Source: Patescibacteria group bacterium
Lineage (GTDB): Bacteria > Patescibacteriota > Minisyncoccia > UBA6257 > HR35
DNA length: 32,000 bases
NCBI GenBank assembly: GCA_023480925.1
Contig: JAMCWY010000003.1
Coordinates: 1-32,000 of the forward strand
Direction: 5' to 3'
The stretch's first letter is position 1; every line of letters begins with the position of its first letter. Position numbers and translations under genes: made by a program. Positions 4,993 to 27,483 of this stretch are shown here, piece by piece. Below the pieces are notes generated by a model that saw only the letters and a list, made by a program, of their open reading frames with translations, was not told where the DNA came from and searched no databases.

Positions 4993-6483
4993 ATGCTTGA
5001 AGTTTTTTTTCAAAATTCAAGTCCAAAGCAGACCGTAGTTAAAAACACCTTTTGGCTTTTAACCGAAACGGTCGTGAATAAATTGTTGAAATTTTTTCTG
5101 ATTATTTGGGCGGCGCGGATTTTAGGCGCGGCTGGTTATGGCGCGTTTTCTTTCGCTCTATCTTTCGCCGCGACGATTTTTATATTCGCCGATCTCGGCA
5201 TTGGTTCGATCTTGATCCGGGAATACCAAAAAGAACAAAATCGAATTCTTGTTTCAACCGCTCTCTGGTTAAAACTCATTTTGTCTTTAATCTCAATCTT
5301 GGTCGGCCTTGTTGTCCTGTTTTTTTTCAAAAGCGTTCAAGCTCGGCCGATTATTTTAATTTTGCTTTTGATGGATTTCATTCTTAATTTCCGCGATGGC
5401 TTCATCGCTTTTGCTCGAGCGAGGCAGAAGATGGAAGAGGAGGCCTTTTTAATCGTTCTTGAAAACATTGTTGTTTTTTTGATCGGCTTTCTCGTTTTGT
5501 TTTTCTGGCCGAGCGCTTTGAATTTTAGTTTGGCTTATTTCGCCGGCGCTTTGATTTCACTTTTGGCCACGTTTATTGTTTTTCAAAAACGGGCGAAGAT
5601 ATTTAGCCGAAATTTTGATCCGGTCTTGGCCAAAAAAATTTTGCGTTTGGCTTGGCCGTTTACTTTCGGCGGTCTCATCGCCGTCACCCTTGGTTCAATC
5701 GACATCTTGATGCTTGGCTTGCTTAAAACCGCTGCCGCGGTTGGAATTTATTCCGCCGCGATTAAAATTGTTTATGTTCTAAGCGTTATCCCTGGGATTA
5801 TTGTCGGCGCGATTTTTCCTTTAATCAGCCGTTTTCATCAAGACGAAAAAGTTCTTTTGAAAATTATTCGGGAAGGGAACAGCGCTCTTTTGCTTTTAGC
5901 TTTGCCTTTGACCCTAGGCGGTTTTTTGATCGGCGGTCGCTTGATTCATTTTTTTCTCGGTTCTCAATATCTTGCCAGTGTTTTAATTTTTAAGGTTTTG
6001 ATTTTTCTCGTGCCGCTGATTTTTCTCGTTTCGCTTTGGGACAGTTTTTTGTTGGCGGTCAACCTTCAGATCAAAGATTTTGAATATACGGCCGTCGCCG
6101 CGGCCCTGAACGTTATCTTGAACTTTATCTTGATTCCAGAGTTTTTCGGTCTCGGTGCGGCCGTGGCGATTTTAATCAGTCAGTTTGTCAATTTTGTTTT
6201 AACTTATCGGTTGACGCGGGCGTACTTCAAAAAAACATTTGAACAATCGGGTCAAACTCAAGTTTACACCGGTCTGATCGATTTTAAGTTGTTGGCGAAA
6301 TATATTTTCGCGACTTTGGTTATGACCGTCTTTGTTTTTGCCCTGACCTTAACCAGAATCTCGTCTTTCGTCATTATATTTTTGGCGATTTTTATTTACC
6401 TCGGCGCGCTTTTATTGACTCGGGAGGAGTTTTCTCTGAGTTTTGTTTCTTTGGTTAAACGGAAGTTTTTCTCGATTCGGTGA
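4993..6483 (+). CDS. MOP-superfamily (Wzx-type) polysaccharide/oligosaccharide flippase
   Basis: A 496-aa polytopic membrane protein with roughly 12-14 hydrophobic helices. The N-terminal NTFWLL...KLLKFFLIIWAARILG pattern is typical of this family. Confidence 0.75.
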   Translation: MLEVFFQNSSPKQTVVKNTFWLLTETVVNKLLKFFLIIWAARILGAAGYGAFSFALSFAATIFIFADLGIGSILIREYQKEQNRILVSTALWLKLILSLISILVGLVVLFFFKSVQARPIILILLLMDFILNFRDGFIAFARARQKMEEEAFLIVLENIVVFLIGFLVLFFWPSALNFSLAYFAGALISLLATFIVFQKRAKIFSRNFDPVLAKKILRLAWPFTFGGLIAVTLGSIDILMLGLLKTAAAVGIYSAAIKIVYVLSVIPGIIVGAIFPLISRFHQDEKVLLKIIREGNSALLLLALPLTLGGFLIGGRLIHFFLGSQYLASVLIFKVLIFLVPLIFLVSLWDSFLLAVNLQIKDFEYTAVAAALNVILNFILIPEFFGLGAAVAILISQFVNFVLTYRLTRAYFKKTFEQSGQTQVYTGLIDFKLLAKYIFATLVMTVFVFALTLTRISSFVIIFLAIFIYLGALLLTREEFSLSFVSLVKRKFFSIR

Positions 6484-6852
6484 AAATAAAGTTGTTGGAG
6501 ATAATAAAATTGATCGGATAAACGATTAAGATCGCAATGATGAAACTAAAGAGATAGTTAATTGAAAATTGGTTAATGAAGACAAAAATCAAGCCGGTGT
6601 ATATCATTAAACCAAAAAATTGAGCCAAGCCGAAAAGAATAAATCTTTTCGCGACCCGATCATCTTTGGTTTTAAAGGTTAGCCAAGCCTGAAAGGTAAA
6701 ATTAAACCAATAAGATAACCACCGATCGAACCAAAAAGATAGTTGAGGTTAAATTGGTCGATCAGAAAATAGGCTGAGCTAATATTTGAGATAAAAGCCA
6801 AACCGCCGCCCAAACTATACCAAAGAAACCATTTTAATTTTTTTCGTTTCAT
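6455..6852 (-). pseudogene. GtrA-family membrane protein gene broken by a 1-nt frameshift
   Basis: The minus-strand ATG at 6852 gives MKRKKLKWFLWYSLGGGLAFISNISSAYFLIDQFNLNYLFGSIGGYLIGLILPFRLG, then a stop at 6679-6681. Another frame continues QAWLTFKTKDDRVAKRFILFGLAQFFGLMIYTGLIFVFINQFSINYLFSFIIAILIVYPINFIISNNFIFTES to a stop at 6455-6457. The span is 398 nt, one short of a multiple of three. Confidence 0.6.
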
Positions 6853-6876
6853 TGCCAATCCTTGGATTGATTCTTT

Positions 6877-7244: not shown

Positions 7245-7414
7245 CGCGGGTGACAAAAAATTTTACCGGCCGATCGATTCGATAAATTTATAAGCGGACG
7301 CGATCAAGACGAGTTCAATTTTAAAACGGCAACCAGAAGTTAAATTTAACGATTTGGTTTCAATAATAATTGAAAGCGTTCGTAATTATTAAGCGATATG
7401 GGGTAAAAAAAATT

Positions 7415-8362
7415 ATGAATAAAGATTTGCTTCAAGCTTTAAAAAATCATGAATTGCATGGTTTTGTAATAAAATCTTGGTCTTGGTTCGGACCGATTCG
7501 ATCGCGCGCGCTGGCGATACTGGGTTTTCTTAAGGGTTATTTTTCATTTGGCGAAACGCTTAATTTGATGTTAACGACTAAGTATAAAAGTACAGCTCTT
7601 CGAGTTAAATTCGCTAATTTTATCAATACCGAAACCAGAAAAGCAATTGCGCTATTTGTTAATAGCGATAATTCAATCGATATTTTTGGCGACAAGATGT
7701 ACGCGCCGTTTAATAGCGTGGCTGAATTATTTGATTTGATTTATTCAATTTTATATTTTGATCAATATGGCGCTGGGAAGTTTCTACAAAAAGATTCAGT
7801 TGTGATAGACGCCGGCGCGAATATAGGCACGTTTTCCATATTAGCCAGCCATTTGGCTCCAAATGGCAAGGTCTACTCTTTTGAACCGGTTAAATATACA
7901 TTTGAACTTCTGCGCAAAAACACTGTCAATTACAAAAACGTTAGCTCTTATAATTACGGCTTAGGCGATAAAGAATCAGAAAAAAAAATTTTTATTTATA
8001 AAGACACAACTGGCGGTAACGTTTTAGAAGATAGTGAAGTGGTGGAGCAGAGAATAAGAGAAGACTTCTCCGGCTCCGAAAAAATTAGAATTACGACCAT
8101 AGATAAGTTTGTTAAGGAAAACAATATAAGCAAAATTGATTTTATAAAGATTGATACAGAAGGATATGAAGCGCGGATAATTGAAGGTGCGAGAGAAACA
8201 ATAAAGCGATTCAAACCGATAATGGCGATGTCCGCTTATCATAATGATAATGACAAAGAACTGTTGCCAAGAATAGTTAAATCAATAGATCAGAATTATA
8301 AATATAAGCTCGAGAAAGTTTTTGAAGAGGATTTTATTTTTTATATAGATGATAAAACCTAG
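7415..8362 (+). CDS. FkbM-family SAM-dependent methyltransferase
   Basis: VVIDAGANIGTFS glycine-rich SAM loop. VYSFEP. IDFIKIDTEGYE, which is characteristic of FkbM/Methyltransf_21. The ORF track starts at TTG 7370; the first ATG is 7415. Confidence 0.8.
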   Translation: MNKDLLQALKNHELHGFVIKSWSWFGPIRSRALAILGFLKGYFSFGETLNLMLTTKYKSTALRVKFANFINTETRKAIALFVNSDNSIDIFGDKMYAPFNSVAELFDLIYSILYFDQYGAGKFLQKDSVVIDAGANIGTFSILASHLAPNGKVYSFEPVKYTFELLRKNTVNYKNVSSYNYGLGDKESEKKIFIYKDTTGGNVLEDSEVVEQRIREDFSGSEKIRITTIDKFVKENNISKIDFIKIDTEGYEARIIEGARETIKRFKPIMAMSAYHNDNDKELLPRIVKSIDQNYKYKLEKVFEEDFIFYIDDKT

Positions 8363-9383
8363 GATTAGACTATTGATTCAATCTCCAGCTTCATTGGGTT
8401 TTGGCGGCGGCAATGTTGTTGTCGCAATGTTGAATAAATACATTAATAAATTTGGTTATGATATTGATTTTCTTAATTTTATAGATCGCAATGATGATTT
8501 TGATGTGTTGCATTTAATCGGTATGCAAGCGGGTAATTGTTTAAACGGCCTTACGGCTAAAACTAAAGGGAAAAAAATCGTTCTTCAATCTCTTTTTTAT
8601 ACCGATACTAATCTATTTTTATACAAGCTAACGGAGAGATTTATGAGCCACAAATTTTGGGCATTTTCTCAAAATAAATTTTATTTAATGCAACAATTGT
8701 TAAATATAACTGACGTGATATTGGTTAGTAGTAAAGCTGAGCTTGAACAGATTAAATATATTTTTAGTTTTGATAAATCAAAAGCAAAAATAATTCATAA
8801 TGGAATAGAAACGGAGATTTTTGACGACATAGACGATAATTTTATTGAGAAATTTAATTTAAAGCCCGGCTATGTTTTGTGTGTCGCGAATATAAATAAA
8901 AAAAAGAATATTCTAAATTTAATTAAAGCCTTTTTACTTACAGGCCTGGATACGAAACTTGTTTTAGTCGGTATTTATAACGATGATCCGGATTTATTCT
9001 ATTGCAACGAAGTTAAAAAACTTATTAATGAAAGTGAAGGGAAGATAGTACGTGTTGAAAATATTTCTAAGGGGTTACTGGCCTCCGCTTACTTAAACGC
9101 TAAAATTCACGTATTGCCAAGCTTTTGGGAATTGCCCGGTTTAGTTAGTTTAGAGGCCGGCCTGGCCGGCGCCGGCCTTGTTCTTGGAGATTGTGCTCCG
9201 GTGCGGGAATATTTCGGCAATTTGGCTACTTATTGTAACCCAAACGATATATCTGATATTACCGATAAAATAACCAAGGCTTACAATTTATCTCCCACGA
9301 CCAAACTCAGTCAATTTATAAAAACTAACTATTCTTGGACGGAAATAGCCAAGAAGTTAGCTGTTATTTATGACTCATTATGA
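8349..9383 (+). CDS. GT4-family (group 1) glycosyltransferase
   Basis: The C-terminal HVLPSFWELPGLVSLEAGLAGAGLV resembles the E-x7-E region of retaining GT4 enzymes. It overlaps the upstream gene by 14 nt. Confidence 0.75.
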   Translation: MIKPRIRLLIQSPASLGFGGGNVVVAMLNKYINKFGYDIDFLNFIDRNDDFDVLHLIGMQAGNCLNGLTAKTKGKKIVLQSLFYTDTNLFLYKLTERFMSHKFWAFSQNKFYLMQQLLNITDVILVSSKAELEQIKYIFSFDKSKAKIIHNGIETEIFDDIDDNFIEKFNLKPGYVLCVANINKKKNILNLIKAFLLTGLDTKLVLVGIYNDDPDLFYCNEVKKLINESEGKIVRVENISKGLLASAYLNAKIHVLPSFWELPGLVSLEAGLAGAGLVLGDCAPVREYFGNLATYCNPNDISDITDKITKAYNLSPTTKLSQFIKTNYSWTEIAKKLAVIYDSL

Positions 9384-10315
9384 TGGAGCAACACGAAAAA
9401 ATATTAGTCAGTGTCATCATTCCTACCTATAACAGGCCCAAGCTTGTTCTTAGAGCGATTAGTAGTGTTCTTAATCAGACTTACCAAAATTTTGAAGTTG
9501 TGGTGATGGATGATTCTCGCAATGAGGATACGGCCAATGCTATCGGAAGCGTTAAAGACTCAAGAGTAAGGTATACTCATAATCTTGTCCGTCTTGATTT
9601 TTGCGAAAATAAAAATCAAGGCGTCAAAAGCGCCGATCACGCTTCCGAGTACATTACTTTTCTTGACGATGACGACGAATACTTGCCGATGTTTTTGGAA
9701 AAGACTGTTGATTTTTTGGATAAACATAAGGATGTTTTCGCGGTTACCACTTACGCCGAGTTCAAGACGCAGGACGGCGAATTGATAAACATATACCCTT
9801 GCGAATGCGAGTCGTGGAAAGTAACAATGGGTAATGGTTGGGTTTTAAGGAAAAGCGTGTTTTTCGCGGATAATATTTGGTACGATAAAAGTTTAATGTC
9901 CGAGGATCTTGATTTTGGCATAGCCGTTGCTCAAAAACACAAGTGGAAGTGTTTGCCGGAAGTTTTGAGGGTGTATTACGGCTATCCCGCGGTCAAGGGT
10001 GCGTCGCATTCAACTTCGTTTACTAAGAGTACTCCGACCGCGGAGGTAACCAGATTTTTAGAGAAGAATTTTGAGTTTTATAAAAGATCGGGGCCGGAAG
10101 CTCTTGCTTGGGCCCATTTCTTAATGGGTAAGATGCTTTGTCGGGCTAACCAAATCAAAGAAGGCAGGCAATATCTCAAGAAGGCGTTTTATTATGATCG
10201 CAGGATTGTCTACCTTTTTTATTATCTGCTTTCTGTTTTTTCGCCGTGGTCGTTCGGAAATATGCGTCTTGCCATTCTGAAGAATAAGTTTAAAAATAAG
10301 ATTAAGAGCTTATGA
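9380..10315 (+). CDS. GT2-family glycosyltransferase
   Basis: VSVIIPTYNRPKLVLRAISSVLNQTY, VVVMDDS and FLDDDDEY (DxD) motifs. ATGA overlaps at both ends. Confidence 0.85.
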   Translation: MMEQHEKILVSVIIPTYNRPKLVLRAISSVLNQTYQNFEVVVMDDSRNEDTANAIGSVKDSRVRYTHNLVRLDFCENKNQGVKSADHASEYITFLDDDDEYLPMFLEKTVDFLDKHKDVFAVTTYAEFKTQDGELINIYPCECESWKVTMGNGWVLRKSVFFADNIWYDKSLMSEDLDFGIAVAQKHKWKCLPEVLRVYYGYPAVKGASHSTSFTKSTPTAEVTRFLEKNFEFYKRSGPEALAWAHFLMGKMLCRANQIKEGRQYLKKAFYYDRRIVYLFYYLLSVFSPWSFGNMRLAILKNKFKNKIKSL

Positions 10316-10851
10316 GAATTTTAGATTTCGGTTGCGGAAGCAAAAAAATTCAAAGAGAAAACGCCGTCGTTGTCGGTGTGGACAATAACACGGAAAGCGA
10401 CGCCGATGTCATCCACGACTTAAACCAATTTCCTTATCCGTTTGAAAACGACAGTTTCGACGAAGTTGTTTGTTTTGATGTTTTGGAACATCTTGTTGAT
10501 ATTCCAAAAGTGATGGCGGAAATTTATCGTCTAAGCAAGAAAGGCGCGGTTATCAAGATCAGAACTCCGCATTTTAGCAGTCCGTACGCCGCCATGGATC
10601 CGACTCATTGCCATCATTTCAGCGTTTTTTCATTTGATATTTTTTGCCGCAACCGTAAGATAATACCGCATAATTTCACGAATAATTTTTTTATTTTAAC
10701 AAAAAGAAAAATTATTTTTCCAAAACTGACGAGAGTTGTTTTAGCGCCGCTGACTTTTTTGTTCAATCAGTATTCTCTTCGTTACGAGCAATATCTGACT
10801 TTTATATTTCAAGCGGAAAATATTTATTTGGAACTGGAAGTTGAAAAATAA
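10312..10851 (+). CDS. Class I SAM-dependent methyltransferase (Methyltransf_11-like)
   Basis: ILDFGCGS motif I. FDEVVCFDVLEHL and LSKKGAVIKIRTPH post-I motifs. Confidence 0.7.
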   Translation: MRILDFGCGSKKIQRENAVVVGVDNNTESDADVIHDLNQFPYPFENDSFDEVVCFDVLEHLVDIPKVMAEIYRLSKKGAVIKIRTPHFSSPYAAMDPTHCHHFSVFSFDIFCRNRKIIPHNFTNNFFILTKRKIIFPKLTRVVLAPLTFLFNQYSLRYEQYLTFIFQAENIYLELEVEK

Positions 10852-10852
10852 G

Positions 10853-11986
10853 ATGAGAATAGGTATTGATGCGAGAGTCTTGGAAAGAAAGATGACCGGT
10901 GTCGGCCGCTATGTTTTGAACTTAATTAAGAATATTTCTTCCTGCGACGAGACGAACGAATACTTTATTTTTTCTTACGCGCCTCTGAAGGATTTTGTCG
11001 CTTCGAATCCGAACATTAAAAATATTCCGACTTTAAATTTTTTGCCTCGCGGCGTCCTTCAGAAATTAATATCGCCTTTCTGGATGAATTTGATCCTGCC
11101 AACATTTCTCCGTCGCGAAAAAATAGATCTGTTTTTTTCTCCAAATCACGTCTTGCCTTTTTTGAGGGGGAAAACAAAAAACGTGGCAGTGATTCTTGAT
11201 TTGTTTAATATTATCAATAAGAAGTTTCATTCTTTTTTGTATCGTTTATACGTCAGCTTTACCTTATTTAATTCCGTCAAGAAAAGCGATGCGATTATTA
11301 CAATTTCCGAAGCGTCCAAAAAAGATATAATAAAATTTTTAAAAGTTCAAGGAGACAAGGTAAAGGTTATTTATCTCGCGGCTGATGATAAATTCAAACC
11401 AAGAAACATAAGCGATGAGGAAAAACGTAAATTAAGAGCAAGATACGACTTGTCCGAAGAATTTATTTTATATGTCGGCGTGATAGAAGAAAGGAAAAAC
11501 ATGGCCGGAATTTTAAAAGTTGCCGATGAACTTTTGAAAAGAGGCCTAAAAACGCCGATTGTCTTGATTGGCCGTGTGGGCTATGGCGGCAAGAAATACA
11601 TAGAAAACGTAAAAAATCGCGAGAATGTTTTTTACAGAGGATTTGTCGAAGAAGCCGACTTGCCCTATATTTATAACATCTCGTCTTTATTTTTTTTCCC
11701 ATCGCTTTATGAGGGATTTGGTCTTCCGCCCCTTGAGGCGATGCGATCAGGTGTGCCCGTGGTCGCGTCTAATGCCTCGTCGCTTCAGGAAGTGATAGGC
11801 GATGGGGGGATTATGCTTTCGCCCGATGATTATCCCGGTTTTACCGACGTCATAGAAAGGATTATGAAAGATGATAATCTACGTTTAGAGCTTATACAAA
11901 AAGGGCTAGCGCGAGCGAGTAAGTTTAGTTTCGAGAGAATGGCTTGCGAAACGGTCGAGACATTAAACAGAGTTAAACAACTATGA
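10853..11986 (+). CDS. GT4-family glycosyltransferase (mannosyltransferase-like)
   Basis: FPSLYEGFGLPPLEAMRSGVPVVASN is the canonical E-x7-E motif. ATG 10853 lies 2 nt after the upstream stop; the ORF track uses TTG 10841. Confidence 0.85.
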   Translation: MRIGIDARVLERKMTGVGRYVLNLIKNISSCDETNEYFIFSYAPLKDFVASNPNIKNIPTLNFLPRGVLQKLISPFWMNLILPTFLRREKIDLFFSPNHVLPFLRGKTKNVAVILDLFNIINKKFHSFLYRLYVSFTLFNSVKKSDAIITISEASKKDIIKFLKVQGDKVKVIYLAADDKFKPRNISDEEKRKLRARYDLSEEFILYVGVIEERKNMAGILKVADELLKRGLKTPIVLIGRVGYGGKKYIENVKNRENVFYRGFVEEADLPYIYNISSLFFFPSLYEGFGLPPLEAMRSGVPVVASNASSLQEVIGDGGIMLSPDDYPGFTDVIERIMKDDNLRLELIQKGLARASKFSFERMACETVETLNRVKQL

Positions 11987-12936
11987 CGAAGAAAATATTA
12001 ATTACTGGCGTGGCCGGGTTTATTGGCAGCAATCTCGCCGAACGTTTAATCAAGGAAGGTTATCGGGTCGTCGGTGTCGATAATTTATCGGCTGGCGTTT
12101 TAGAGCAAGTTCCCAAAGAGGTTGAATTTCACAAAATTGATATTCGTTCGAAGGATATTTTCCCGGTCTTCAATGGCGTTGATGTTGTTTTTCATTTTGC
12201 CGCTAAAAATTGTATCTCTGAATGTCAACTTTATCCGCTCGAAACGGCCGACGTGAACATAATCGGCACGCTTAACGTTTTTGACGCCTCGTTGAAAGCT
12301 AAAGTTGATAGAGTAATTTACGCGGAGTCGTCGGCAATATACGAAGGGACAGAGATATTCCCAACGCCGGAAACTAATTTTACGCCTCAAACTTTTTATG
12401 CCATAACAAAGGCGTCCAATCATCTATTCGCCAAAGCTTACCAGCAGTTTTTCGGTTTGAAGACAGTTGGAATGAGGTATCTTAATGTCTACGGTCCAAG
12501 GCAAGATTATCGCCGGGTCGTGGCGCCGGTCATGAGCGCTTTTATAATAAAGTTTTTAATGGGCAAAAGACCAAAAATCTTTGGCAATGGATTAAAAAGA
12601 AGAGATTTTATCCATGTTGACGATATAAATGATTTTCATATAATGTGTATTAATAATGAAAAGGTTATTAATAAGGTGTTCAATTTGGGCGGCGGTAAAA
12701 ATTATTCGATTATGGAAATATACAAAATGATCCAAGATATTTTAAAGATTAAAATTGAACCGGAATTTTTGCCTGATGTTCCAGGGGAAGCTTTTGAAAG
12801 TTTGGGTGATATAACGGAAGCTCGTAAAATTGGTTGGGAGCCTAAGATGCCTCTCCGCGATGGTCTGATTGGAATGATTGATTATATAAAAAAAGAAATA
12901 ACAAAAGGTAATATTAAAAGCGATACCGTCTTATGA
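11983..12936 (+). CDS. Extended-SDR NAD-dependent NDP-sugar epimerase/dehydratase
   Basis: ILITGVAGFIGSNL Rossmann motif and YAITKASNH catalytic YxxxK. About 317 aa, GalE/WbpP-like in length and layout. Confidence 0.85.
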   Translation: MTKKILITGVAGFIGSNLAERLIKEGYRVVGVDNLSAGVLEQVPKEVEFHKIDIRSKDIFPVFNGVDVVFHFAAKNCISECQLYPLETADVNIIGTLNVFDASLKAKVDRVIYAESSAIYEGTEIFPTPETNFTPQTFYAITKASNHLFAKAYQQFFGLKTVGMRYLNVYGPRQDYRRVVAPVMSAFIIKFLMGKRPKIFGNGLKRRDFIHVDDINDFHIMCINNEKVINKVFNLGGGKNYSIMEIYKMIQDILKIKIEPEFLPDVPGEAFESLGDITEARKIGWEPKMPLRDGLIGMIDYIKKEITKGNIKSDTVL

Positions 12937-13919
12937 TTATTACGCGAACTCCTTTTAGAATAACTTTGGGCGGCGGCGGCACGGATTTGCCGTCTTATTA
13001 CTCAAAATACGGCGGATTTATTTTTTCCGCCGGAATCGATAAGTATATGTTTGTTGACGTGAATAGACCGGTCGTCGACGATTTGATCCGTTTGAAATAT
13101 TCAAAGTCGGAGACGGTTGAAAATGTTGAAGAAATTCAGCATAGCATAGCGAAAGAAATTTTAAAATTTATCGGCATTGACAAATGTATAGAAATAAGTT
13201 CGGTCGCCGACATACCGGCCGGGACCGGTTTGGGTTCATCGAGTTGTTATGCTGTGGGACTTTTGCACGCTCTGCATGCTTTAAAAAGAGATTACGTGCC
13301 GTTAGATAAATTAGCGGATGAGGATTTTAAAATCGAAGCGGAAATTTTAGGCAGACCAATAGGGAAGCAAGATCCTTATATGGCCGCCATCGGCGGATTA
13401 ACTGTTTTGGATATAGACCAAGAAGGAGGAGTTAAAGCAAGGAAAGCTAATATTTCGTACGAGGCGGCCAACGCTCTCAATGGTAATATGCTTGTGTTTT
13501 TTACCGGTTTGACCAGGAGCGCGGACGAGATATTAGTTGAGCAAAAGAAAGCGATTAATGAAGAAAAAAAGGATGTTCTTGAAAGTATGCATTATATTAA
13601 AGAACTCGGTTACAAAATATTAGAAGCGGTTGAATCGGAAAATATTGCCGACGTGGGCAAGCTATTTGATACCCACTGGCAATATAAGAAAAAAATTTCA
13701 AACAAGATGTCAAATGAAAGATTTGATAAAATTTACAGAATCGCTAAAGAAAACGGCGCCTTGGGCGGAAAAATTTCCGGTGCGGGCGGGGGAGGATTTT
13801 TTACTTTTTACGTGGAAAATAACCATAAAAAGTTTAGAGAAGTGATGAAAGATTTAAACCTGCGAGAAATGAGATATCGTTTTGACTTTGAAGGTTCGAA
13901 GGTTTTAATTGATTTTTAA
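12933..13919 (+). CDS. hddA: GHMP-family sugar kinase, probable D-glycero-alpha-D-manno-heptose 7-phosphate kinase
   Basis: MIITRTPFRITLGGGGTDLPSYY N-terminus. PAGTGLGSSS GHMP motif II. GAGGGGF motif III. It clusters with gmhA, gmhB and a nucleotidyltransferase. Substrate is inferred from context. Confidence 0.7.
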   Translation: MIITRTPFRITLGGGGTDLPSYYSKYGGFIFSAGIDKYMFVDVNRPVVDDLIRLKYSKSETVENVEEIQHSIAKEILKFIGIDKCIEISSVADIPAGTGLGSSSCYAVGLLHALHALKRDYVPLDKLADEDFKIEAEILGRPIGKQDPYMAAIGGLTVLDIDQEGGVKARKANISYEAANALNGNMLVFFTGLTRSADEILVEQKKAINEEKKDVLESMHYIKELGYKILEAVESENIADVGKLFDTHWQYKKKISNKMSNERFDKIYRIAKENGALGGKISGAGGGGFFTFYVENNHKKFREVMKDLNLREMRYRFDFEGSKVLIDF

Positions 13920-13929
13920 ATTTGGAATA

Positions 13930-14757
13930 ATGACGTTAAAAAATAAAGTGGCTGTGGTAACCGGCGGATCGGGTGGCATAGGTAAGGTCGTGGCGGAAGT
14001 ATTAGTTAAAAACGGCGCGACCGTTATAATTATTGGTAAAAAACAAAAAAAGTTGAAAGGAGTCGTTAATTCTTTTGAAGAAAAGGGATTTAAGATTGAT
14101 TGCGAAAAATGCGATATTTCTAATGTGTCAGAAGTCAGTCGCGTCGTCATAAAAATTATCGCGCTTTTAAAAAGAATAGATATTTTGGTAAACTGCGCCG
14201 GCGTTCAATCGCCCATCGGTCCGTTTGTTGATAATACTTTTTTGGCTTGGGAAAAAAATATCAAGGTTAACTTGTTGGGGACGGTCTTAATGTCTAAAAA
14301 AGTTATTCCTTATATGATAAAAAGAAAAAGTGGTTATATTATCAATTTTGCCGGCGGCGGCGCGACCTCGTCTCGGCCTAATTTTTCAGCCTACGCCGCG
14401 GCCAAAACGGCGATCGTGCGGTTTACCGAAGTTTTGGCTGATGAGGTTAGACGATACAACATTAATGTAAACGCTGTCTCGCCGGGCGCGGTTAACACCA
14501 AAATGACCGAAGAAGTTTTAAAAGTTGGAATGAAAGCCGGTTTAAAAGAATTGACCGATGTTAAAAGACGAATCAAAGAAGGCGGAACGTCGCCGGAGCT
14601 TGTGGCTAATCTGATTGTTTTTTTATCGTCGGCTAAATCAAAAGGATTATCAGGAAGATTGATTAGCGCCGTTTGGGACAAATGGCAAGAGTGGGATGCA
14701 AAAGCTATTAGAGAAATAATGAAAAGCGATAAATACACATTAAGAAGAATTAAGTAA
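13930..14757 (+). CDS. Classical short-chain dehydrogenase/reductase
   Basis: VAVVTGGSGGIG cofactor motif, NCAG, and YAAAKTA catalytic YxxxK. The first ATG is at 13930; the ORF track uses TTG 13909. Confidence 0.85.
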   Translation: MTLKNKVAVVTGGSGGIGKVVAEVLVKNGATVIIIGKKQKKLKGVVNSFEEKGFKIDCEKCDISNVSEVSRVVIKIIALLKRIDILVNCAGVQSPIGPFVDNTFLAWEKNIKVNLLGTVLMSKKVIPYMIKRKSGYIINFAGGGATSSRPNFSAYAAAKTAIVRFTEVLADEVRRYNINVNAVSPGAVNTKMTEEVLKVGMKAGLKELTDVKRRIKEGGTSPELVANLIVFLSSAKSKGLSGRLISAVWDKWQEWDAKAIREIMKSDKYTLRRIK

Positions 14758-14758
14758 A

Positions 14759-15781
14759 ATGTCAGAAATAAATATTAAGAATATGGGCGTTGGTATTGTC
14801 GGTGCTGGCTTAATTGGTTGGAGACGAGCGGAAGTAATTAAGGCGTCGAAAAAAGGCAAACTTTTAGTGGTCACAGACGCTGATTTTGAAAAAGCCAAAA
14901 AATTAGCGGAAAAATATAATTGCCAAGCGTGTCAAAGTTGGTCGGACCTTCTTAAGAAGGAAGACGTAAAAATTGTTATTGTCGCCGTGCCAAATAAATT
15001 TGCCGCGCCAATTTCAATCGCCGCGTTAAAGAAAAACAAACATGTTTTTTGCGAAAAACCGCTTGGCCGAAACGCGAATGAAGCAAAAAAAGTTTTGACG
15101 GCCGTAAAAAAATACAAAAAAGTTTTTAAGGTCGGTTTTAATCATCGTTTTCACGCGGCCGTCGCTCAAGCAAAAAAAATTTTTGACGAAGGCGGGATAG
15201 GAAAACTTATGTTCATTCGCGCTCGATATGGTTACGGCGGCAGGTTCGGGATGGAAAAAGAATGGCGAATGGACAAAAATATTTCCGGCGGCGGCGAACT
15301 GTTGGATCAAGGTGTTCATATTATTGATCTGGTGCGATGGTTCGGCGGCGAACCAAAAAAAGTGTACGGTTTAGTCCAAACCAAATTTTGGCAAACTCAG
15401 GTTGACGATAACGCCTTCGTGATTATGTCGAATGATAATGTTACGGCGGAGTTTCATGTCAGTTCGACTAATTGGAAGAATATATTTTCCTTCGAAATTT
15501 TCGGAGACAAAGGTTATTTGGAGATAAGCGGCAAGGGTGGTAGCTACGGTGAAGAAATTCTTATTTGGGGCAGAAGAAGAAAAAAATTCGGAGTGCCAAA
15601 AATAAAAATTTTTAAATTTGGAAAAGATATTAGTTGGGAGCGAGAATGGTTAAATTTTTTTAACGGAATAGTCAAGAAAACTAAGATTAATGGTGATACC
15701 AACGACGGTTATGCCGCCAATAAAATCGTTGAAGCAATTTATAAATCAGCTATAATGAAAAAAGTCGTTGATTTAAATTAA
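14759..15781 (+). CDS. Gfo/Idh/MocA-family NAD(P)-dependent oxidoreductase
   Basis: GVGIVGAGLIG Rossmann motif and VFCEKPL (EKP) motif. About 340 aa. Confidence 0.8.
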   Translation: MSEINIKNMGVGIVGAGLIGWRRAEVIKASKKGKLLVVTDADFEKAKKLAEKYNCQACQSWSDLLKKEDVKIVIVAVPNKFAAPISIAALKKNKHVFCEKPLGRNANEAKKVLTAVKKYKKVFKVGFNHRFHAAVAQAKKIFDEGGIGKLMFIRARYGYGGRFGMEKEWRMDKNISGGGELLDQGVHIIDLVRWFGGEPKKVYGLVQTKFWQTQVDDNAFVIMSNDNVTAEFHVSSTNWKNIFSFEIFGDKGYLEISGKGGSYGEEILIWGRRRKKFGVPKIKIFKFGKDISWEREWLNFFNGIVKKTKINGDTNDGYAANKIVEAIYKSAIMKKVVDLN

Positions 15782-15801
15782 CAGTTTATAATTTTTAGAT
15801 T

Positions 15802-16509
15802 ATGAACGATTTAAAAATAAAAATATTCGGCGACGGCGCGGATAAGTCAAGTATGCTTGATTTGTATCAGAAGCCGTACATTAAAGGTTTCACCACTAAT
15901 CCGACGTTAATGAGAAAGGCCGGCATTGAAAATTATGAAGCGTTCGCCAAGGATATTCTTTCTTTAATTAAAGATCGTCCCGTTTCTTTTGAGGTTTTTT
16001 CCGATGAGTTTTCGGAAATGGAAAGGCAGGCTAAAATCATAGCGAGTTGGGCTAAAAATGTTTATGTCAAAATACCGATTACTAACACGAAAGGCTTGAG
16101 TTCTTTTGAAGTTGTAAAAAATTTATCCAATGATGGAATCAAATTGAACATCACGGCGATTTTCACTCCAAAACAAGTTAAACATATCGCCGCCGCCTTG
16201 GCCTCGGGCGTGCCATCGATTATTTCCGTTTTTGCCGGTCGAGTCGCCGACACCGGCGTTGATCCAGTGCCGTTAATGAAAGAATGTAAAGAAATATTGA
16301 AAGATTATCCGGACGCCGAACTTTTGTGGGCTAGTCCGAGAGAGCTTTTAAATATATTCCAGGCTGATCAGATTGGTTGTGATATTATTACGGTTACACC
16401 CGATGTCTTAAAGAAACTTGATAGTGTTGGCTATGATTTGGAAAAATTTTCCATTGATACGGTCAAAATGTTTTTTGACGACGGTCAGAAAGCCGGTTAT
16501 AAACTTTAA
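15802..16509 (+). CDS. tal: Small transaldolase / fructose-6-phosphate-aldolase-family enzyme
   Basis: KIFGDGAD ... GFTTNPTL N-terminal motif and the YVKIPIT Schiff-base lysine context. About 235 aa, typical of the short transaldolase subfamily. Confidence 0.75.
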   Translation: MNDLKIKIFGDGADKSSMLDLYQKPYIKGFTTNPTLMRKAGIENYEAFAKDILSLIKDRPVSFEVFSDEFSEMERQAKIIASWAKNVYVKIPITNTKGLSSFEVVKNLSNDGIKLNITAIFTPKQVKHIAAALASGVPSIISVFAGRVADTGVDPVPLMKECKEILKDYPDAELLWASPRELLNIFQADQIGCDIITVTPDVLKKLDSVGYDLEKFSIDTVKMFFDDGQKAGYKL

Positions 16510-16532
16510 TTTTAATTAATCTCTAAGATAAA

Positions 16533-17135
16533 ATGGACAATTACATCGATTCTTATTTCGAAGAAGTAAAAAAAATAGCCGATAATATTGATAAAAGCTC
16601 CATTAAAAAAGTTATTGATATTTTAAAAAATATTCGATCTAATAGCGGTCGTTTGTATATTATTGGCGTTGGCGGAAGCGCTGGCAGCGCTAGTCATGCC
16701 GTCAACGATTTTAGAAAGTTGGCTGGGATCGAAGCTTACGCGCCAACGGATAATGTTTCCGAGTTGACCGCGAGAACCAATGACGAGGGCTGGCAAACTA
16801 TTTTTTCCGAATGGCTTAAAGGAAGCAAATTAAACAATAATGACGTTATTTTAGTTTTATCCGTTGGTGGCGGCAACGAAGAAAAGAATATCAGTCCGAA
16901 TATAGTCGAAGCTCTTAAGCTGGCGAAAGATGTCGGCGCTAAAATTATCGGCATCGTCAGCCGAGACGGCGGCTACACTAAAAAAGTCGCTGACGCCTGC
17001 GTTCTTATCCCGGTTGTCAATGATAAGGCAATAACGCCTCACGCCGAATCATTTCAGGCTGTTGTTTGGCATTTAATTGTTTTCCATCCGGATTTTCAGT
17101 TGAACTCGGGTAAATGGGAATCGATCAAAAAATAA
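16533..17135 (+). CDS. gmhA: Single-SIS-domain protein, probable sedoheptulose-7-phosphate isomerase
   Basis: YIIGVGGSAGSASHAVNDF and ILVLSVGGGN SIS motifs. It is 200 aa, matching GmhA length, and sits next to gmhB. Confidence 0.7.
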   Translation: MDNYIDSYFEEVKKIADNIDKSSIKKVIDILKNIRSNSGRLYIIGVGGSAGSASHAVNDFRKLAGIEAYAPTDNVSELTARTNDEGWQTIFSEWLKGSKLNNNDVILVLSVGGGNEEKNISPNIVEALKLAKDVGAKIIGIVSRDGGYTKKVADACVLIPVVNDKAITPHAESFQAVVWHLIVFHPDFQLNSGKWESIKK

Positions 17136-17701
17136 AAATTCAGAAAAGAGCGGTTTTTCTTGATCAAGATGGAACCGTGATTAAACATGTAGATTTACTT
17201 ATTGACGTTAAAGACATTAAAATACTTCCCGGCGTCGTGACCGCCATTAGACGACTTCGTCAATTAGGTTTTTTGGTTATAGTGATTACGAATCAACCAG
17301 TAGTGGCAAGAGGATTAATTTCTGAAAATGGCGTAAAAGTATTAGAAAAAAGAATTTCTTGGTTGTTATCTCAAAAGGGAGTTCTTGTTGACGATTTTTT
17401 CTTTTGTCCTCATCATCCCGAGGCAACTTTGAAAAAATATCGGGTGAAATGTCAATGTCGAAAACCGGCGCCAGGAATGATTTTAAAAGCTGCCAAGAGA
17501 TACAACATAGATTTGAAAAACAGCTTTATGGTGGGCGATGCCTTAATAGATAGCGTTACTGGCCATCGAGCCGGGGTTAAAACTATTCTTGTCAAAACCG
17601 GTCCGGGTCATTCCAAATTGGACAAAATATATAAAGAAGAAAAGCCAGATAAAGTCGTTAAAAAAATTTACGAGGCGGTAAAGCTTATATGCGAAAAATA
17701 A
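17114..17701 (+). CDS. gmhB: D,D-heptose 1,7-bisphosphate phosphatase (HAD superfamily)
   Basis: AVFLDQDGT (DxDGT), VITNQ, CPHHPE...CQCRKPAPGM (zinc loop plus conserved Lys) and VGDALIDSVTGHRAG. It tracks E. coli GmhB closely as I remember it. Confidence 0.85.
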   Translation: MGIDQKIKIQKRAVFLDQDGTVIKHVDLLIDVKDIKILPGVVTAIRRLRQLGFLVIVITNQPVVARGLISENGVKVLEKRISWLLSQKGVLVDDFFFCPHHPEATLKKYRVKCQCRKPAPGMILKAAKRYNIDLKNSFMVGDALIDSVTGHRAGVKTILVKTGPGHSKLDKIYKEEKPDKVVKKIYEAVKLICEK

Positions 17702-18420
17702 ATCAAGCTGTTATTCTTTGCGCTGGTCTGGGGACGCGCCTGCGTCCGCTAACTGACAATATGCCGAAACCGATGGTGCCAATTCTGGGTAAGCCGATGC
17801 TTTTATGGAATATAGAGCAGTTTAAGAAATACGGCGTTATTAATTTTAAAATAAATTTATATCATCTTCCCGACGTGATTAAAAATTATTTCGGCGATGG
17901 CTCTAAATTTGGAGTAAAGATTGAATATAGTTTTGAAAAAGAAATTTTAGGCACGGCCGGCGCCCTGGGCGAATTTGACAAAAAGCTAGATGATTTTTTC
18001 TTTTTGATTTACGGCGATGTTGTTAGTTTTATTGATTACAATAAGATGGCGGTTAAATTTTTTGGGTTGGAAAAACCTATTGGCATGCAGCGAGTTGGGC
18101 TTACGTCAAATTATGGCGACGCGAATGTGGCCGAACTCGACCACAATAATAAATTTGTGACTGTATATATAAAGCCTCATTCGGAAATTTATTCTAATGC
18201 GTATCGAATGAGGGGTTCATTTATTTTCAGTAAAAAAGTCTTGAATTATATCGAAAAAGGAAAATGTTCAGAAATAAGTAAAAATTTGTTGCCCAAACTT
18301 ATTGAAAATGATGAAAATTTTTACGGCTATGAGTGTGATGAATTTTCAAAGGGCGTGGATACGATCGATAAATTAAATGAGGTCGAAGATTACATCAGAA
18401 ATAATCATATGATTATATGA
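17689..18420 (+). CDS. hddC: Sugar-1-phosphate nucleotidyltransferase, probable heptose-1-phosphate guanylyltransferase
   Basis: AVILCAGLGTRLRPLTDNMPKPMVPILGKPML signature and about 243 aa. Nucleotide and sugar specificity are inferred from context only. Confidence 0.65.
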   Translation: MRKINQAVILCAGLGTRLRPLTDNMPKPMVPILGKPMLLWNIEQFKKYGVINFKINLYHLPDVIKNYFGDGSKFGVKIEYSFEKEILGTAGALGEFDKKLDDFFFLIYGDVVSFIDYNKMAVKFFGLEKPIGMQRVGLTSNYGDANVAELDHNNKFVTVYIKPHSEIYSNAYRMRGSFIFSKKVLNYIEKGKCSEISKNLLPKLIENDENFYGYECDEFSKGVDTIDKLNEVEDYIRNNHMII

Positions 18421-19256
18421 ATGATATTGGTCTTTTTAGGGTGACAGTGCTTATAGCTACTTGGAATCGAAAAGACTTGATTGGAAAAGCGATAGAGAGT
18501 GTTTTGCAACAGTCTTTTCCATCGTGGGAATTAATTGTAATAGACGATGGTTCCACGGATGGCACAGAAGAAGTGGTTGCTAAATATATTTTTCGTGATT
18601 CAAGAGTGAAATATATTAAGATTGATCATATTGGAAGGATTGCTGTGGTCTCTAATCGTGGTTTACGATTGGCGGTCGGCGATTATATCGCCATATTGGA
18701 TGATGATGATGTTTGGATAGATGAAGATAAATTAAAAAAACAGGTTGATTTTTTGGATAAAAATCAACTTTATGTTGGTTGCGGCGGCGGCATGATTGGA
18801 GTTGATCGGGCTGGCAACGGAATGTTTAGATCTTTAAAACCTGAGAGTGACGCTGAAATAAAAAAAAGAGCTTTGTGCGCAAATCCAATGATTAATTCCG
18901 CGACGATGTTTAGAAGAAGTATCGCTGAAAAAATTGGATTTTATGATGAAACCTTATCGCAGTTCGCCGATTGGGATTTCTGGTTGAAAATTGGAACGAT
19001 GGGGAAGTTGTATAATTTTCAGGAATACTTCGTGTTATATCTTGTCTGGGATAAGAGCAGTTCTTTTACTAAACAAAAAGAAAACGCGCGATCGGCGTTA
19101 ACAATAGTGAAAAAATATAGAAAAATTTATCCAAATTTTAAAGTAGCCTTCGTCTTGGCTGTTTTATATAGAAGTTATACGTTCATACCGGCAAGCGTTA
19201 GAAGATTTTTGAATCCAATATTTTCCATTGCCAAAAAAAAAATTTTTTCTAAATAG
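18417..19256 (+). CDS. GT2-family glycosyltransferase
   Basis: VTVLIATWNRKDLIGKAIESVLQQSF, LIVIDDGSTDGT and ILDDDD (DxD) motifs. Confidence 0.85.
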   Translation: MNDIGLFRVTVLIATWNRKDLIGKAIESVLQQSFPSWELIVIDDGSTDGTEEVVAKYIFRDSRVKYIKIDHIGRIAVVSNRGLRLAVGDYIAILDDDDVWIDEDKLKKQVDFLDKNQLYVGCGGGMIGVDRAGNGMFRSLKPESDAEIKKRALCANPMINSATMFRRSIAEKIGFYDETLSQFADWDFWLKIGTMGKLYNFQEYFVLYLVWDKSSSFTKQKENARSALTIVKKYRKIYPNFKVAFVLAVLYRSYTFIPASVRRFLNPIFSIAKKKIFSK

Positions 19257-19812: not shown

Positions 19813-20646
19813 ATGAGAAGAAGTCTGATTTTTTATTTAAGCTTGGCGGCGATCGCCATTGTTTTGTTATTAAGTTTTTTAATTTTTTATCTTGAGCAAA
19901 AGGCCGCTCGAAGTTTGGCCGAGAACGGCGTCAACAATAAAACCGGATTAACCAAAGTTGATTCGAGCCAGGCTCAAAAAAATCCGACGGTCGTTCAGGT
20001 TAATTTTCAGACCGATGATGGCGTTAATATTGTCGGCGATTATTACGATAATCCAGCGGCAAAGTTCGTCGGCATTGTCGCGCCGATGTTTCGAGCCGAT
20101 CGAAAAGCTTACGCTGATTTTTGCCGCCGGCTTCAAGCAAATGGTTATAGCGTTTTGGCGATCGATTGGCGCGGTCAGGGCGCGAGCGTTGATTCGTCCA
20201 AGGGCAAACTTAATTATCAAAATTTTAGTCAGGCTGATTTTCAGAACGCGATTTTTGATTTGGAAGCGGCGAGTAAGTTTTTACGCGGCAAAGGCTTCCA
20301 AACTAATAACCAATTTTTAATCGGCAGCGGCTTGGGCGCGAACTTAGTTTTGAAATTTTTAGGCGGCAATAATAACTTCCGCTTGGCTGTTTTGGTCGCG
20401 CCGCGATTGAATGACTCAAGAGTCAAAATTGAATCTCTGATTGATCCGGGTCTTGGCCCGAAATTAATTTTGGTCGTTTCCGCCTCGGACAGCGCCGCCG
20501 TCGAGGCAGTGACGTTTTTGAACCAGAAAATGCCAGGTAGCCAAACAATAATTTATCCAAGCGGCAATGATAGCCGAGGCCAATTTTTGGACGATCCCGG
20601 TTTATCTGATAAAATTATAATGTGGCTTAAGACTAAGTTGTTCTAA
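19813..20646 (+). CDS. Membrane-anchored alpha/beta-hydrolase-fold protein lacking the catalytic Ser and His
   Basis: N-terminal TM LIFYLSLAAIAIVLLLSFLIFYL. AIDWRGQGAS matches the D-x-RG-x-G-x-S loop of the fold. The nucleophile elbow reads LIGSGLGA where G-x-S-x-G is expected. The protein has no histidine at all. Confidence 0.6.
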   Translation: MRRSLIFYLSLAAIAIVLLLSFLIFYLEQKAARSLAENGVNNKTGLTKVDSSQAQKNPTVVQVNFQTDDGVNIVGDYYDNPAAKFVGIVAPMFRADRKAYADFCRRLQANGYSVLAIDWRGQGASVDSSKGKLNYQNFSQADFQNAIFDLEAASKFLRGKGFQTNNQFLIGSGLGANLVLKFLGGNNNFRLAVLVAPRLNDSRVKIESLIDPGLGPKLILVVSASDSAAVEAVTFLNQKMPGSQTIIYPSGNDSRGQFLDDPGLSDKIIMWLKTKLF

Positions 20647-27153: not shown

Positions 27154-27483
27154 ATGAATTTTAAACAGTATCAAGAAAAATCTCGTCGGACCGCGATTTA
27201 TCCCCGTCGCGGCAAAGATTTTATTTATCCGGCTCTCGGTTTGGGCGGCGAGACGGGCGAGGTTTTGGATAAGATTAAAAAAATCATCCGAGACAAAAAT
27301 TACAAAGTTGATCAGTTGGTTCGATCGGAATTAGAAAAAGAACTGGGCGATGTTTTGTGGTATCTGGCTCAATTGGCGACGGAATTAAAATTATCTCTTG
27401 ACCAAATCGCGAAAACAAATTTAAAAAAATTAAATTCACGTTTAAAGCGAGATCAAATCAAGGGCAGCGGCGATAATCGTTAA
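27154..27483 (+). CDS. Small MazG-like all-alpha nucleoside triphosphate pyrophosphohydrolase
   Basis: LGLGGETGEVLDKIKK and ELGDVLWYLAQLA correspond to the E-x2-E ... E-x2-D metal-binding helices of the MazG/YpjD-type family. It is 109 aa. It starts 11 nt after atpA and ends 4 nt before atpG. Confidence 0.75.
   Translation: MNFKQYQEKSRRTAIYPRRGKDFIYPALGLGGETGEVLDKIKKIIRDKNYKVDQLVRSELEKELGDVLWYLAQLATELKLSLDQIAKTNLKKLNSRLKRDQIKGSGDNR

Follow-up and report, generated by a model that had tools for sequence, protein, structure and literature searches.

A conserved transaldolase-containing nucleotide-sugar module in bacterial surface-glycan operons, with a possible octose-type product

Which sugar does a surface-glycan operon build when it carries a transaldolase of its own? 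The question is raised by the first 32,000 nucleotides of contig JAMCWY010000003.1 (assembly GCA_023480925.1; the whole stretch is hereafter the window), which derive from a metagenome-assembled genome (MAG) of a Patescibacteria group bacterium, a member of the Candidate Phyla Radiation (CPR). A first-pass annotation made from the letters of the window had proposed a 13-gene operon for GDP-heptose, with the transaldolase as a dedicated supplier of sedoheptulose-7-phosphate. According to the list of open reading frames (ORFs), bases 7370–19256 hold 14 densely packed genes, all on the + strand. Their junctions are overlaps of 4–22 nt or gaps of at most 23 nt and are therefore compatible with a single operon, so that the operon stands, with 14 genes rather than 13. 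In order, the genes encode an FkbM methyltransferase, a GT4 and a GT2 glycosyltransferase, a class-I S-adenosylmethionine (SAM) methyltransferase, a second GT4 enzyme, an extended short-chain dehydrogenase/reductase (SDR), a GHMP kinase, a classical SDR, a Gfo/Idh/MocA protein, the transaldolase, a SIS protein, a HAD-IIIA phosphatase, a PF00483 nucleotidyltransferase and a second GT2 enzyme. A Pfam family was found for all 14 ORFs, and every gene named in the first-pass annotation lies where it had been placed, on the + strand and with the family given to it; the CPR host and the glycan-locus context had likewise been recognized. Catalytic motifs are intact in the five core enzymes (transaldolase, isomerase, kinase, phosphatase and nucleotidyltransferase) and in the three redox enzymes. 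The 14 genes form a single surface-glycan operon around a conserved transaldolase-dependent nucleotide-sugar module. Among nucleotide-sugar pathways of the heptose/octose kind the operon represents a new variant, marked by a transaldolase-containing module that current annotation misses. By analogy with the lincosamide antibiotic pathway we favour, with moderate confidence, a nucleoside diphosphate (NDP)-octose-type product over GDP-heptose.

The evidence that carries this view comes first from the company that the transaldolase gene keeps. A metagenome scan returned at least 597 relatives of the transaldolase, of which the best 80 were analyzed. Proximity of SIS and HAD genes was scored in 50 independent loci with at least 1.3 kb of upstream sequence, and that of kinase and nucleotidyltransferase genes in the 30 loci whose upstream sequence reached 4.5 kb or more. 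A SIS gene was found within 1.5 kb of the transaldolase gene in 47 of the 50 loci and a HAD phosphatase gene in 49; a kinase gene was near in 25 of the 30 and a nucleotidyltransferase gene in 23. Orthologues of the transaldolase are abundant (60–82% identity), and the GC content of the module loci ranges from 26 to 66%. The commonest gene order, GHMP–nucleotidyltransferase–SIS–HAD–transaldolase, is unlike that of the window; the membership is constant. Unbiased clustering of all ORFs around the module transaldolases yielded only ten recurrent families: transaldolase (78 loci), HAD (50), SIS (46), nucleotidyltransferase (44), GHMP kinase (41), GalE-like SDR (37), classical SDR (21), Gfo/Idh/MocA (21), GT2 (12) and a UDP-glucose-dehydrogenase-like protein (11). 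The last is encoded in 11 of the 22 loci in which classical SDR, Gfo/Idh/MocA and transaldolase genes occur together. The transaldolase is a near-obligate member of a cross-phylum module with SIS, HAD, GHMP and nucleotidyltransferase partners.

The same module is present in other CPR genomes, including L001/L002, which are nearly syntenic with the window, L005 (on a 460-kb contig) and L006, as well as in L087 (Liptonbacteria), L098 (Peregrinibacteria) and L099. A Nitrospirota MAG carries the same operon with 4-nt gene overlaps. Among cultured bacteria, Rhizobium jaguaris pRCCGE525c encodes, in succession, GT2, GalE-like SDR, UDP-glucose-dehydrogenase-like, SDR, Gfo/Idh/MocA, GHMP, nucleotidyltransferase, SIS, HAD and transaldolase proteins, and plasmid 3 of Lawsonia intracellularis also carries the module. 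In Rhizobium sp. CB3060 the SIS protein alone was matched; by protein names only, the SIS protein extends to Aurantimonas sp. HBX-1 and to four further Rhizobium strains or species, among them R. panacihumi and R. tubonense. Rhizobium has a normal pentose-phosphate pathway with its own transaldolase, and a second, conserved transaldolase in the operon therefore argues for a module-specific product. The enzyme does share an operon with the nucleotide-sugar genes, as the first-pass annotation held, but supply of sedoheptulose-7-phosphate is a weak reason for it to be there, because it is almost obligatory across phyla, Rhizobium included.

Several of the CPR modules also contain a hypothetical protein of about 240 residues with no Pfam or NCBIfam match, whose gene lies next to those for the phosphatase and the nucleotidyltransferase or between the two (L005 11945–12673, L098 9920–10663 and L099 10020–10745, all on the − strand, and perhaps L087 12679–13398 on the + strand). 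It is not encoded in the window.

What does each core enzyme resemble? The transaldolase gene (15802–16509, +; TAL_FSA, E=2e-45) belongs to the TIGR02134 type, scoring 340.6 bits against a cut-off of 281.95. All transaldolase catalytic residues are kept: the Schiff-base lysine in VKIP, Glu64 and the transaldolase-type phenylalanine in SVFAGR, with K90, E64 and F144 invariant in our alignment A1. An assignment as fructose-6-phosphate aldolase was rejected, since the SxFxGR motif has Phe and not Tyr. NCBIfam names TIGR02134 plainly 'transaldolase', and we take it to be the ordinary, sole transaldolase of Staphylococcus and Coxiella. The enzyme described here differs in that its best 80 environmental relatives almost always lie in a nucleotide-sugar module, a link absent from the family description.

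The other four core enzymes were compared with the NCBIfam heptose equivalogs, whose curated cut-offs are 209 bits for GmhA (TIGR00441), 600 for HddA (NF049969), 300 for HddC (NF049965) and, for GmhB, 178 (NF006506) and 149.6 (TIGR00213), with a domain-level model at 84 (TIGR01656). The kinase (12933–13919, +; GHMP_kinases_N and _C, motif PAGTGLGSS) is an HddA/WcbL-like GHMP anomeric sugar-phosphate kinase. HddA is its best NCBIfam model, at 163.8 bits against 600 and so outside the equivalog, and its solved relatives are the HddA-like 4n3o (E=7.5e-40), 3k85 and WcbL 4usk, with galactokinase at E=6e-11. It is 71–81% identical to its counterparts in L001 and L005. The phosphatase (17114–17701, +; HAD-IIIA, motifs DQDGT, TNQ, RKP and GDxxxD) is a GmhB-like sugar-bisphosphate phosphatase with the zinc loop CxH...CxC; it falls narrowly under both GmhB cut-offs (157 vs 178 and 133.7 vs 149.6) and passes the domain-level one (132 vs 84). 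The sugar-1-phosphate nucleotidyltransferase (17689–18420, +; PF00483 NTP_transferase, E=5e-26, motif GLGTRL) gave ambiguous NCBIfam scores (Arch_glmU 112, ManC 109, MurU 103 and, as a partial match, HddC 82.8 bits against 300). Its PDB matches are led by 8x7s (1e-29), followed by ManC types (1e-20) and HddC 5xhw (1e-16); the Rhizobium module nucleotidyltransferase matches MurU best. Three other models thus outscore HddC, the protein lies outside that equivalog, and its first-pass label as HddC-type is not specifically supported.

The isomerase (16533–17135, +; PF13580 SIS_2, E=4.8e-14) is a divergent GmhA-like SIS ketose-aldose isomerase. All 14 of its PDB matches are phosphoheptose isomerases (best E=6e-14), but it reaches only 59.7 of the 209 bits required for the GmhA equivalog. 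We rejected an arabinose-5-phosphate isomerase (KpsF/GutQ), since neither NCBIfam nor PDB returned such a match. The groupings that the first-pass annotation had named as contrary to its proposal thus did not appear, the kinase also being far from galactokinase. Its broader logic, an isomerase, a GHMP anomeric kinase, a HAD phosphatase and a nucleotidyltransferase rather than the HldE/ADP-heptose variant, is borne out; the heptose-enzyme identities hold as nearest kinships (kinase with HddA/WcbL, SIS protein with GmhA, phosphatase with GmhB), none of them at a curated cut-off.

The isomerase belongs to a clade of its own, for which an exhaustive HMMER search returned 379 cluster representatives below an E-value of 1e-30 and 1894 below 1e-10. 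In alignment A2 the clade reads SVGGGNxEKNxSPN where GmhA reads STSGKSPN, a six-residue insertion in the phosphate loop, which in GmhA structures is the binding site for the phosphate group of the substrate. The clade also lacks a segment of about ten residues after the catalytic His/acid pair; the catalytic His/acidic pairs themselves are conserved. Seven family members (P0123, P0127, P0137, P0139, P0150, P0160 and P0211) are fusions to a HAD phosphatase, in either order, or to a nucleotidyltransferase. These fusions confirm that the fused enzymes act in one pathway. No fusion to a transaldolase was found among the SIS-family proteins, only the SIS–HAD, HAD–SIS and nucleotidyltransferase–SIS forms. 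In contexts centred on the SIS gene, L094 holds a full nine-gene module including the transaldolase (48% identity), and L096 a GHMP–SIS–HAD–transaldolase run (43% identity).

Two further observations concern these relatives. The divergent GHMP–SIS–HAD–transaldolase copy of L096 (227–3421) and L097 lies on short contigs, interleaved with ORFs of 72–108 residues that have no family matches, and could originate from a mobile element or phage. When relatives of the Rhizobium jaguaris SIS protein are listed as 90%-identity clusters, each of the best 120 is at least 85% identical to the Rhizobium protein, one of them coming from another genus, Aurantimonas; such high conservation of the module isomerase points to strong constraint, to recent horizontal spread or to both.

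One genome carries two versions of the isomerase side by side. L087, a Candidatus Liptonbacteria MAG, encodes both the transaldolase-linked module and a second GHMP–SIS–HAD trio without a transaldolase (the two spans are 8969–12641 and 14304–16559). The isomerase of the trio follows canonical GmhA in its indel pattern and scores 101 bits with the gmhA model, against 56 for the module isomerase. Two different substrates are the simplest explanation for the duplicated isomerase, kinase and phosphatase, and the comparison of the two isomerases likewise points to module and trio acting on different ones.

Three redox enzymes are encoded among the core genes. The extended SDR (11983–12936, +; PF01370, E=5.5e-56) is GalE-like, of the nucleotide-sugar epimerase type, with GxxGxxG and YxxxK motifs and UDP-glucose 4-epimerase 4zrm as its best solved relative (E=8.8e-56). 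A 4,6-dehydratase was considered for this protein and rejected, the TDE motif being absent and the best matches being GalE. The classical SDR (13909–14757, +; likely ATG start at 13930; PF00106, E=8e-53) is a FabG-like ketoreductase with TGxxxGIG and YxxxK motifs, and its gene is paired again with a Gfo/Idh/MocA gene in 21 related loci. The Gfo/Idh/MocA sugar dehydrogenase (14759–15781, +; PF01408 and PF22725, EKP motif) has inositol 2-dehydrogenase, levoglucosan dehydrogenase and the C-glycoside 3-oxidase DgpA as best solved relatives. We take LmbZ, a lincosamide enzyme described in the papers only as an NAD(P)-dependent oxidoreductase, to belong to the same family.

Is there a characterized pathway with this composition? 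The lincosamide GDP-octose route is the only one that combines a transaldolase with the other four core enzymes (PMC5854111, PMC4351081, PMC12945683). In the lincosamide systems of Streptomyces lincolnensis and S. caelestis, the transaldolase LmbR/CcbR transfers a three-carbon unit from fructose-6-phosphate or sedoheptulose-7-phosphate to ribose-5-phosphate, giving octulose 8-phosphate (PMC5854111), which LmbN isomerizes; the kinase LmbP, the phosphatase LmbK and the guanylyltransferase LmbO complete the core. Conversion to GDP-lincosamide then involves LmbM (epimerase), LmbL (nucleotide-sugar dehydrogenase-like), LmbZ/CcbZ (oxidoreductase) and LmbS (aminotransferase) (PMC4351081, PMC12945683). 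At the level of families, the window offers counterparts to LmbR (in function, the transaldolase), to the isomerase domain of LmbN (the SIS protein), to LmbP (the kinase), to LmbK (the phosphatase), to LmbO, as to HddC (the nucleotidyltransferase), to LmbM (the GalE-like SDR) and to LmbZ (the Gfo/Idh/MocA protein). As in the lincosamide clusters, all five core families, transaldolase included, lie together (within 12933–18420), the GalE-like epimerase and an NAD(P) oxidoreductase accompany them, and the order of reactions would be the same, namely ketose-phosphate synthesis, isomerization, phosphorylation at C1, terminal dephosphorylation and nucleotidylation. The recurrent module contains eight of the nine families (those of LmbR, N, P, K, O, M, Z and L), with a ketoreductase-type SDR in place of the Lmb aminotransferase.

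The two systems differ in several respects. The module described here sits in a glycosyltransferase/Wzx surface-glycan locus and not in an antibiotic cluster, its isomerase has no carrier-protein fusion, and its transaldolase is of the TIGR02134 type, whereas the reported nearest relative of CcbR is actinobacterial (Cellulomonas, 47%). None of the LmbN signature peptides occurs in the 150 best SIS-family representatives, a comparison that is informative only if S. lincolnensis is in the library searched.

The near-obligate transaldolase, the Lmb-like composition, the divergent isomerase and the coexisting canonical-type trio together underlie the octose-type reading, and on this analogy the operon may build an octose-type sugar that has not been described before. 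The transaldolase would move a three-carbon unit from fructose-6-phosphate or sedoheptulose-7-phosphate onto an aldose phosphate, giving a committed ketose omega-phosphate. The divergent GmhA-like isomerase would convert this ketose phosphate into the aldose, the HddA-like kinase would phosphorylate C1, the GmhB-like phosphatase would take off the terminal phosphate, and the nucleotidyltransferase would form the NDP-sugar, probably a GDP-sugar by analogy. The three redox enzymes (GalE-like epimerase, Gfo/Idh/MocA dehydrogenase and classical SDR ketoreductase) would then re-tailor the NDP-sugar by oxidation and reduction, the two methyltransferases, two GT4 and two GT2 enzymes would assemble a methylated oligosaccharide, and the Wzx protein encoded upstream would flip it. 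Our preferred acceptor in the first step is ribose-5-phosphate, which would lead through octulose-8-phosphate to an NDP-octose and make the route a surface-glycan sibling of LmbR/N/P/K/O. Whichever the chain length, the general scheme is well supported: ketose phosphate, aldose phosphate, 1,omega-bisphosphate, aldose-1-phosphate, NDP-sugar, tailoring, methylation, four transferases and Wzx. 'GDP' and 'heptose' as labels for the product are both inferences. Somewhat more tentatively than the octose-type product itself, we propose a widespread and previously unrecognized transaldolase-dependent NDP-octose pathway for surface glycans that would extend over CPR bacteria, Nitrospirota, rhizobia, Lawsonia and many uncultured lineages.

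Several observations weigh against an octose. The parallel with Lmb/Ccb exists at the family level only. The window has no LmbL-type UDP-glucose-dehydrogenase-like gene, which is present in 11 of the 22 fuller related loci, and an LmbS-type aminotransferase is absent from all loci clustered. The transaldolase passes the ordinary equivalog TIGR02134, and the best characterized relatives of kinase, isomerase and phosphatase are heptose enzymes. A SIS relative in L092 (40% identity) lies with a nucleotidyltransferase and a phosphatase gene, with no transaldolase or kinase gene nearby. Conversely, the CPR loci L003/L004 (10001–11549) retain the transaldolase (71% identity) and the GT2 gene next to it (61%) without isomerase, kinase, phosphatase or nucleotidyltransferase, which fits a general metabolic role. 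Finally, the searchable literature yielded no straight-chain octose in a bacterial surface glycan, only the branched octose of Yersinia, and this lowers the prior for an octose. As a separate observation, the L003/L004 locus contains three extended-SDR genes with Pfam matches of the GDP-mannose-dehydratase/epimerase type and a GT11 gene, which we read as fucose-type.

Several of these points favour a GDP-heptose made from sedoheptulose-7-phosphate, in which the co-encoded transaldolase would raise the supply of the ketose and the three redox enzymes would modify the heptose; we regard this explanation as possible but less probable than an octose-type product. The module resembles the GDP-heptose (HddA/HddC) route in its GHMP anomeric kinase (closest to HddA/WcbL), its GmhA-fold isomerase, its GmhB-type zinc-loop HAD phosphatase and its PF00483 nucleotidyltransferase, and the GDP-heptose product is likewise used for surface glycans other than lipopolysaccharide (LPS). 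HddA is the best match of the kinase in both NCBIfam and PDB, the SIS protein matches only phosphoheptose isomerases, and the GmhB cut-off is missed by little. Sedoheptulose-7-phosphate is the usual transaldolase product, the enzyme passes for an ordinary transaldolase, and its retention in L003 without the other genes is as expected of a general pentose-phosphate enzyme. Heptoses are, moreover, common in bacterial glycans, and octoses are not reported in the searchable literature. Similarity to the ADP-heptose (HldE) variant is confined to the isomerase and phosphatase folds; the kinase is GHMP and not of the ribokinase type of HldE, no adenylyltransferase domain is present, the host belongs to the CPR and the locus is of the Wzx type.

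Heptose-like best matches do not, however, separate C7 from C8, because the Ccb/Lmb octose enzymes are themselves reported to match heptose enzymes best: apart from a Sorangium 'sugar phosphatase', the nearest published relatives of the Ccb sugar enzymes outside lincosamide clusters are 'heptose' enzymes (PMC4351081). The enzymes of the module also stay under the curated heptose cut-offs, isomerase, kinase and nucleotidyltransferase by far, and the isomerase stands apart as a clade marked by indels of its own and an altered phosphate loop. We know of no characterized heptose cluster that contains a transaldolase, and a text search of the literature found none; a search for heptose in Patescibacteria returned nothing relevant. 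A near-obligate linkage is hard to reconcile with a supply role when it extends to Rhizobium, which is expected to have sedoheptulose-7-phosphate, and the canonical-type GmhA trio beside the module in L087 would be redundant if both gave heptose. The tailoring enzymes differ as well. Heptoses are known to be modified by dehydratases of the GDP-mannose-dehydratase type and cupin epimerases, neither of which is among the ten recurrent families, and the combination of UDP-glucose-dehydrogenase-like, Gfo/Idh/MocA and GalE-like proteins is the tailoring set of the octose route.

A different higher sugar is unlikely. It could be a C9 aldose formed from a hexose-6-phosphate acceptor, or a heptose or octose whose configuration at C2 is gluco instead of manno and which is activated by some nucleotide different from GDP. 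Several aldose phosphates can serve transaldolases as acceptors (PMC5854111), the isomerase is distant from all characterized relatives, and the nucleotidyltransferase gives no clear signal of specificity, being GlmU/ManC/MurU-like in the window and MurU-like in Rhizobium. Nevertheless, there is no positive evidence for C9, the sizes and families of the enzymes match C7/C8 precedents, and enzymes that span a C7 bisphosphate are close relatives of both the GmhB-like phosphatase and the HddA-like kinase. It is very improbable that the transaldolase is a housekeeping pentose-phosphate gene, a passenger in the glycan locus with no part in the sugar pathway, as might be read from its generic equivalog, its solitary retention in L003/L004 and the lack of a second transaldolase in the 32-kb window, since SIS and HAD genes adjoin it in 47–49 of 50 loci of 26–66% GC and several phyla, with varying order and constant membership, some junctions are overlaps of translationally coupled genes, and in Rhizobium it lies in the operon on a secondary replicon.

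How would an NDP-octose-type or other module sugar reach the cell surface? The operon starts with the FkbM-family methyltransferase gene (7370–8362, +; PF05050, E=2.4e-25). The ORF list has it begin at TTG 7370, and the likely start is ATG 7415, proposed in the first-pass annotation and in agreement with an independent gene call; the protein has 315 residues in an independent assembly. The next four genes encode a GT4 glycosyltransferase (8349–9383, +; PF00534, E=2.9e-15), a GT2 glycosyltransferase (9380–10315, +; PF00535, E=3.1e-29), a class-I SAM methyltransferase of 179 residues (10312–10851, +; PF13489 and PF08241, E about 1e-10) and the second GT4 enzyme (10841–11986, +; PF00534, E=2.2e-31). 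These five are 46, 51, 79, 64 and 66% identical, respectively, to the products of the syntenic genes in L001. The last gene, for the second GT2 enzyme (18417–19256, +; PF00535, E=1.3e-30), accompanies the module in CPR loci: its orthologues (49–65% identity) directly follow the module nucleotidyltransferase gene in L001, L005 and L006, and the lone transaldolase gene in L003. Upstream of the operon lies the gene for a Wzx-type polysaccharide flippase of 496 residues (4993–6483, +; PF01943 Polysacc_synt, E=2.6e-33, and PF13440), homologues of which adjoin related modules in L003, L005, L087 and L099. Pfam thus confirms the two GT4, two GT2 and two methyltransferase genes and the upstream Wzx flippase that the first-pass annotation had listed. 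It also returned the same negative result, with no phosphoglycosyltransferase, Wzy polymerase or ligase gene in the 32-kb window, and no Bac_transf gene either. Several related CPR module loci carry Wzy_C, Wzx and Bac_transf genes, so that functions for initiation and polymerization exist beside the module elsewhere. Promoter and terminator scans gave nothing above shuffled controls.

Between wzx and the operon, a gap of 0.9 kb contains, on the opposite strand (6455–6858, −), two ORFs of 57 and 59 residues, each weakly similar to the N-terminal half of the GtrA/DPMS transmembrane domain and under the Pfam cut-off; they may be remnants of a GtrA-like gene. Downstream the operon is bounded by infA and rpmJ, directly past which a membrane-anchored alpha/beta hydrolase is encoded (19813–20646, +; PF12146, E=1.2e-12). 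The remainder of the window is housekeeping and comprises genes for 16S rRNA, a response regulator, a peptide-chain release factor, ftsE/X, seryl-tRNA synthetase, the ATP synthase operon and RelA/SpoT. The bacterial 16S rRNA gene is full-length (53–1646, +; 1373 bits), and the ORFs listed at 780–1667 are spurious, reading through the rRNA. It is followed by the response-regulator and release-factor genes and not by a 23S rRNA gene, from which we conclude that the rRNA genes are unlinked. A gene for a MazG-family nucleotide pyrophosphohydrolase (27154–27483, +; PF03819, E=2.8e-11) lies between the ATP synthase alpha and gamma subunit genes, a placement inside the operon that is repeated in the independent assembly L090.

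Taken together, the proteins of the module, currently annotated merely as 'SIS domain protein', 'galactokinase' or 'transaldolase', constitute a distinct and highly conserved enzyme set, and would still do so if the product were a heptose. An octose would be a new class of monosaccharide for bacterial surface glycans and would point to a possible evolutionary source of the unusual sugar of the lincosamide antibiotics. If an NDP-octose pathway is indeed widespread, the lincomycin route would be a specialized offshoot of it, and straight-chain octoses would be common but overlooked on bacterial surfaces. The module is present in cultured bacteria (Rhizobium jaguaris and Lawsonia intracellularis, with the SIS protein in Aurantimonas sp. 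HBX-1), and these carriers make the surface glycobiology of the CPR, otherwise hard to reach, testable through tractable stand-ins.

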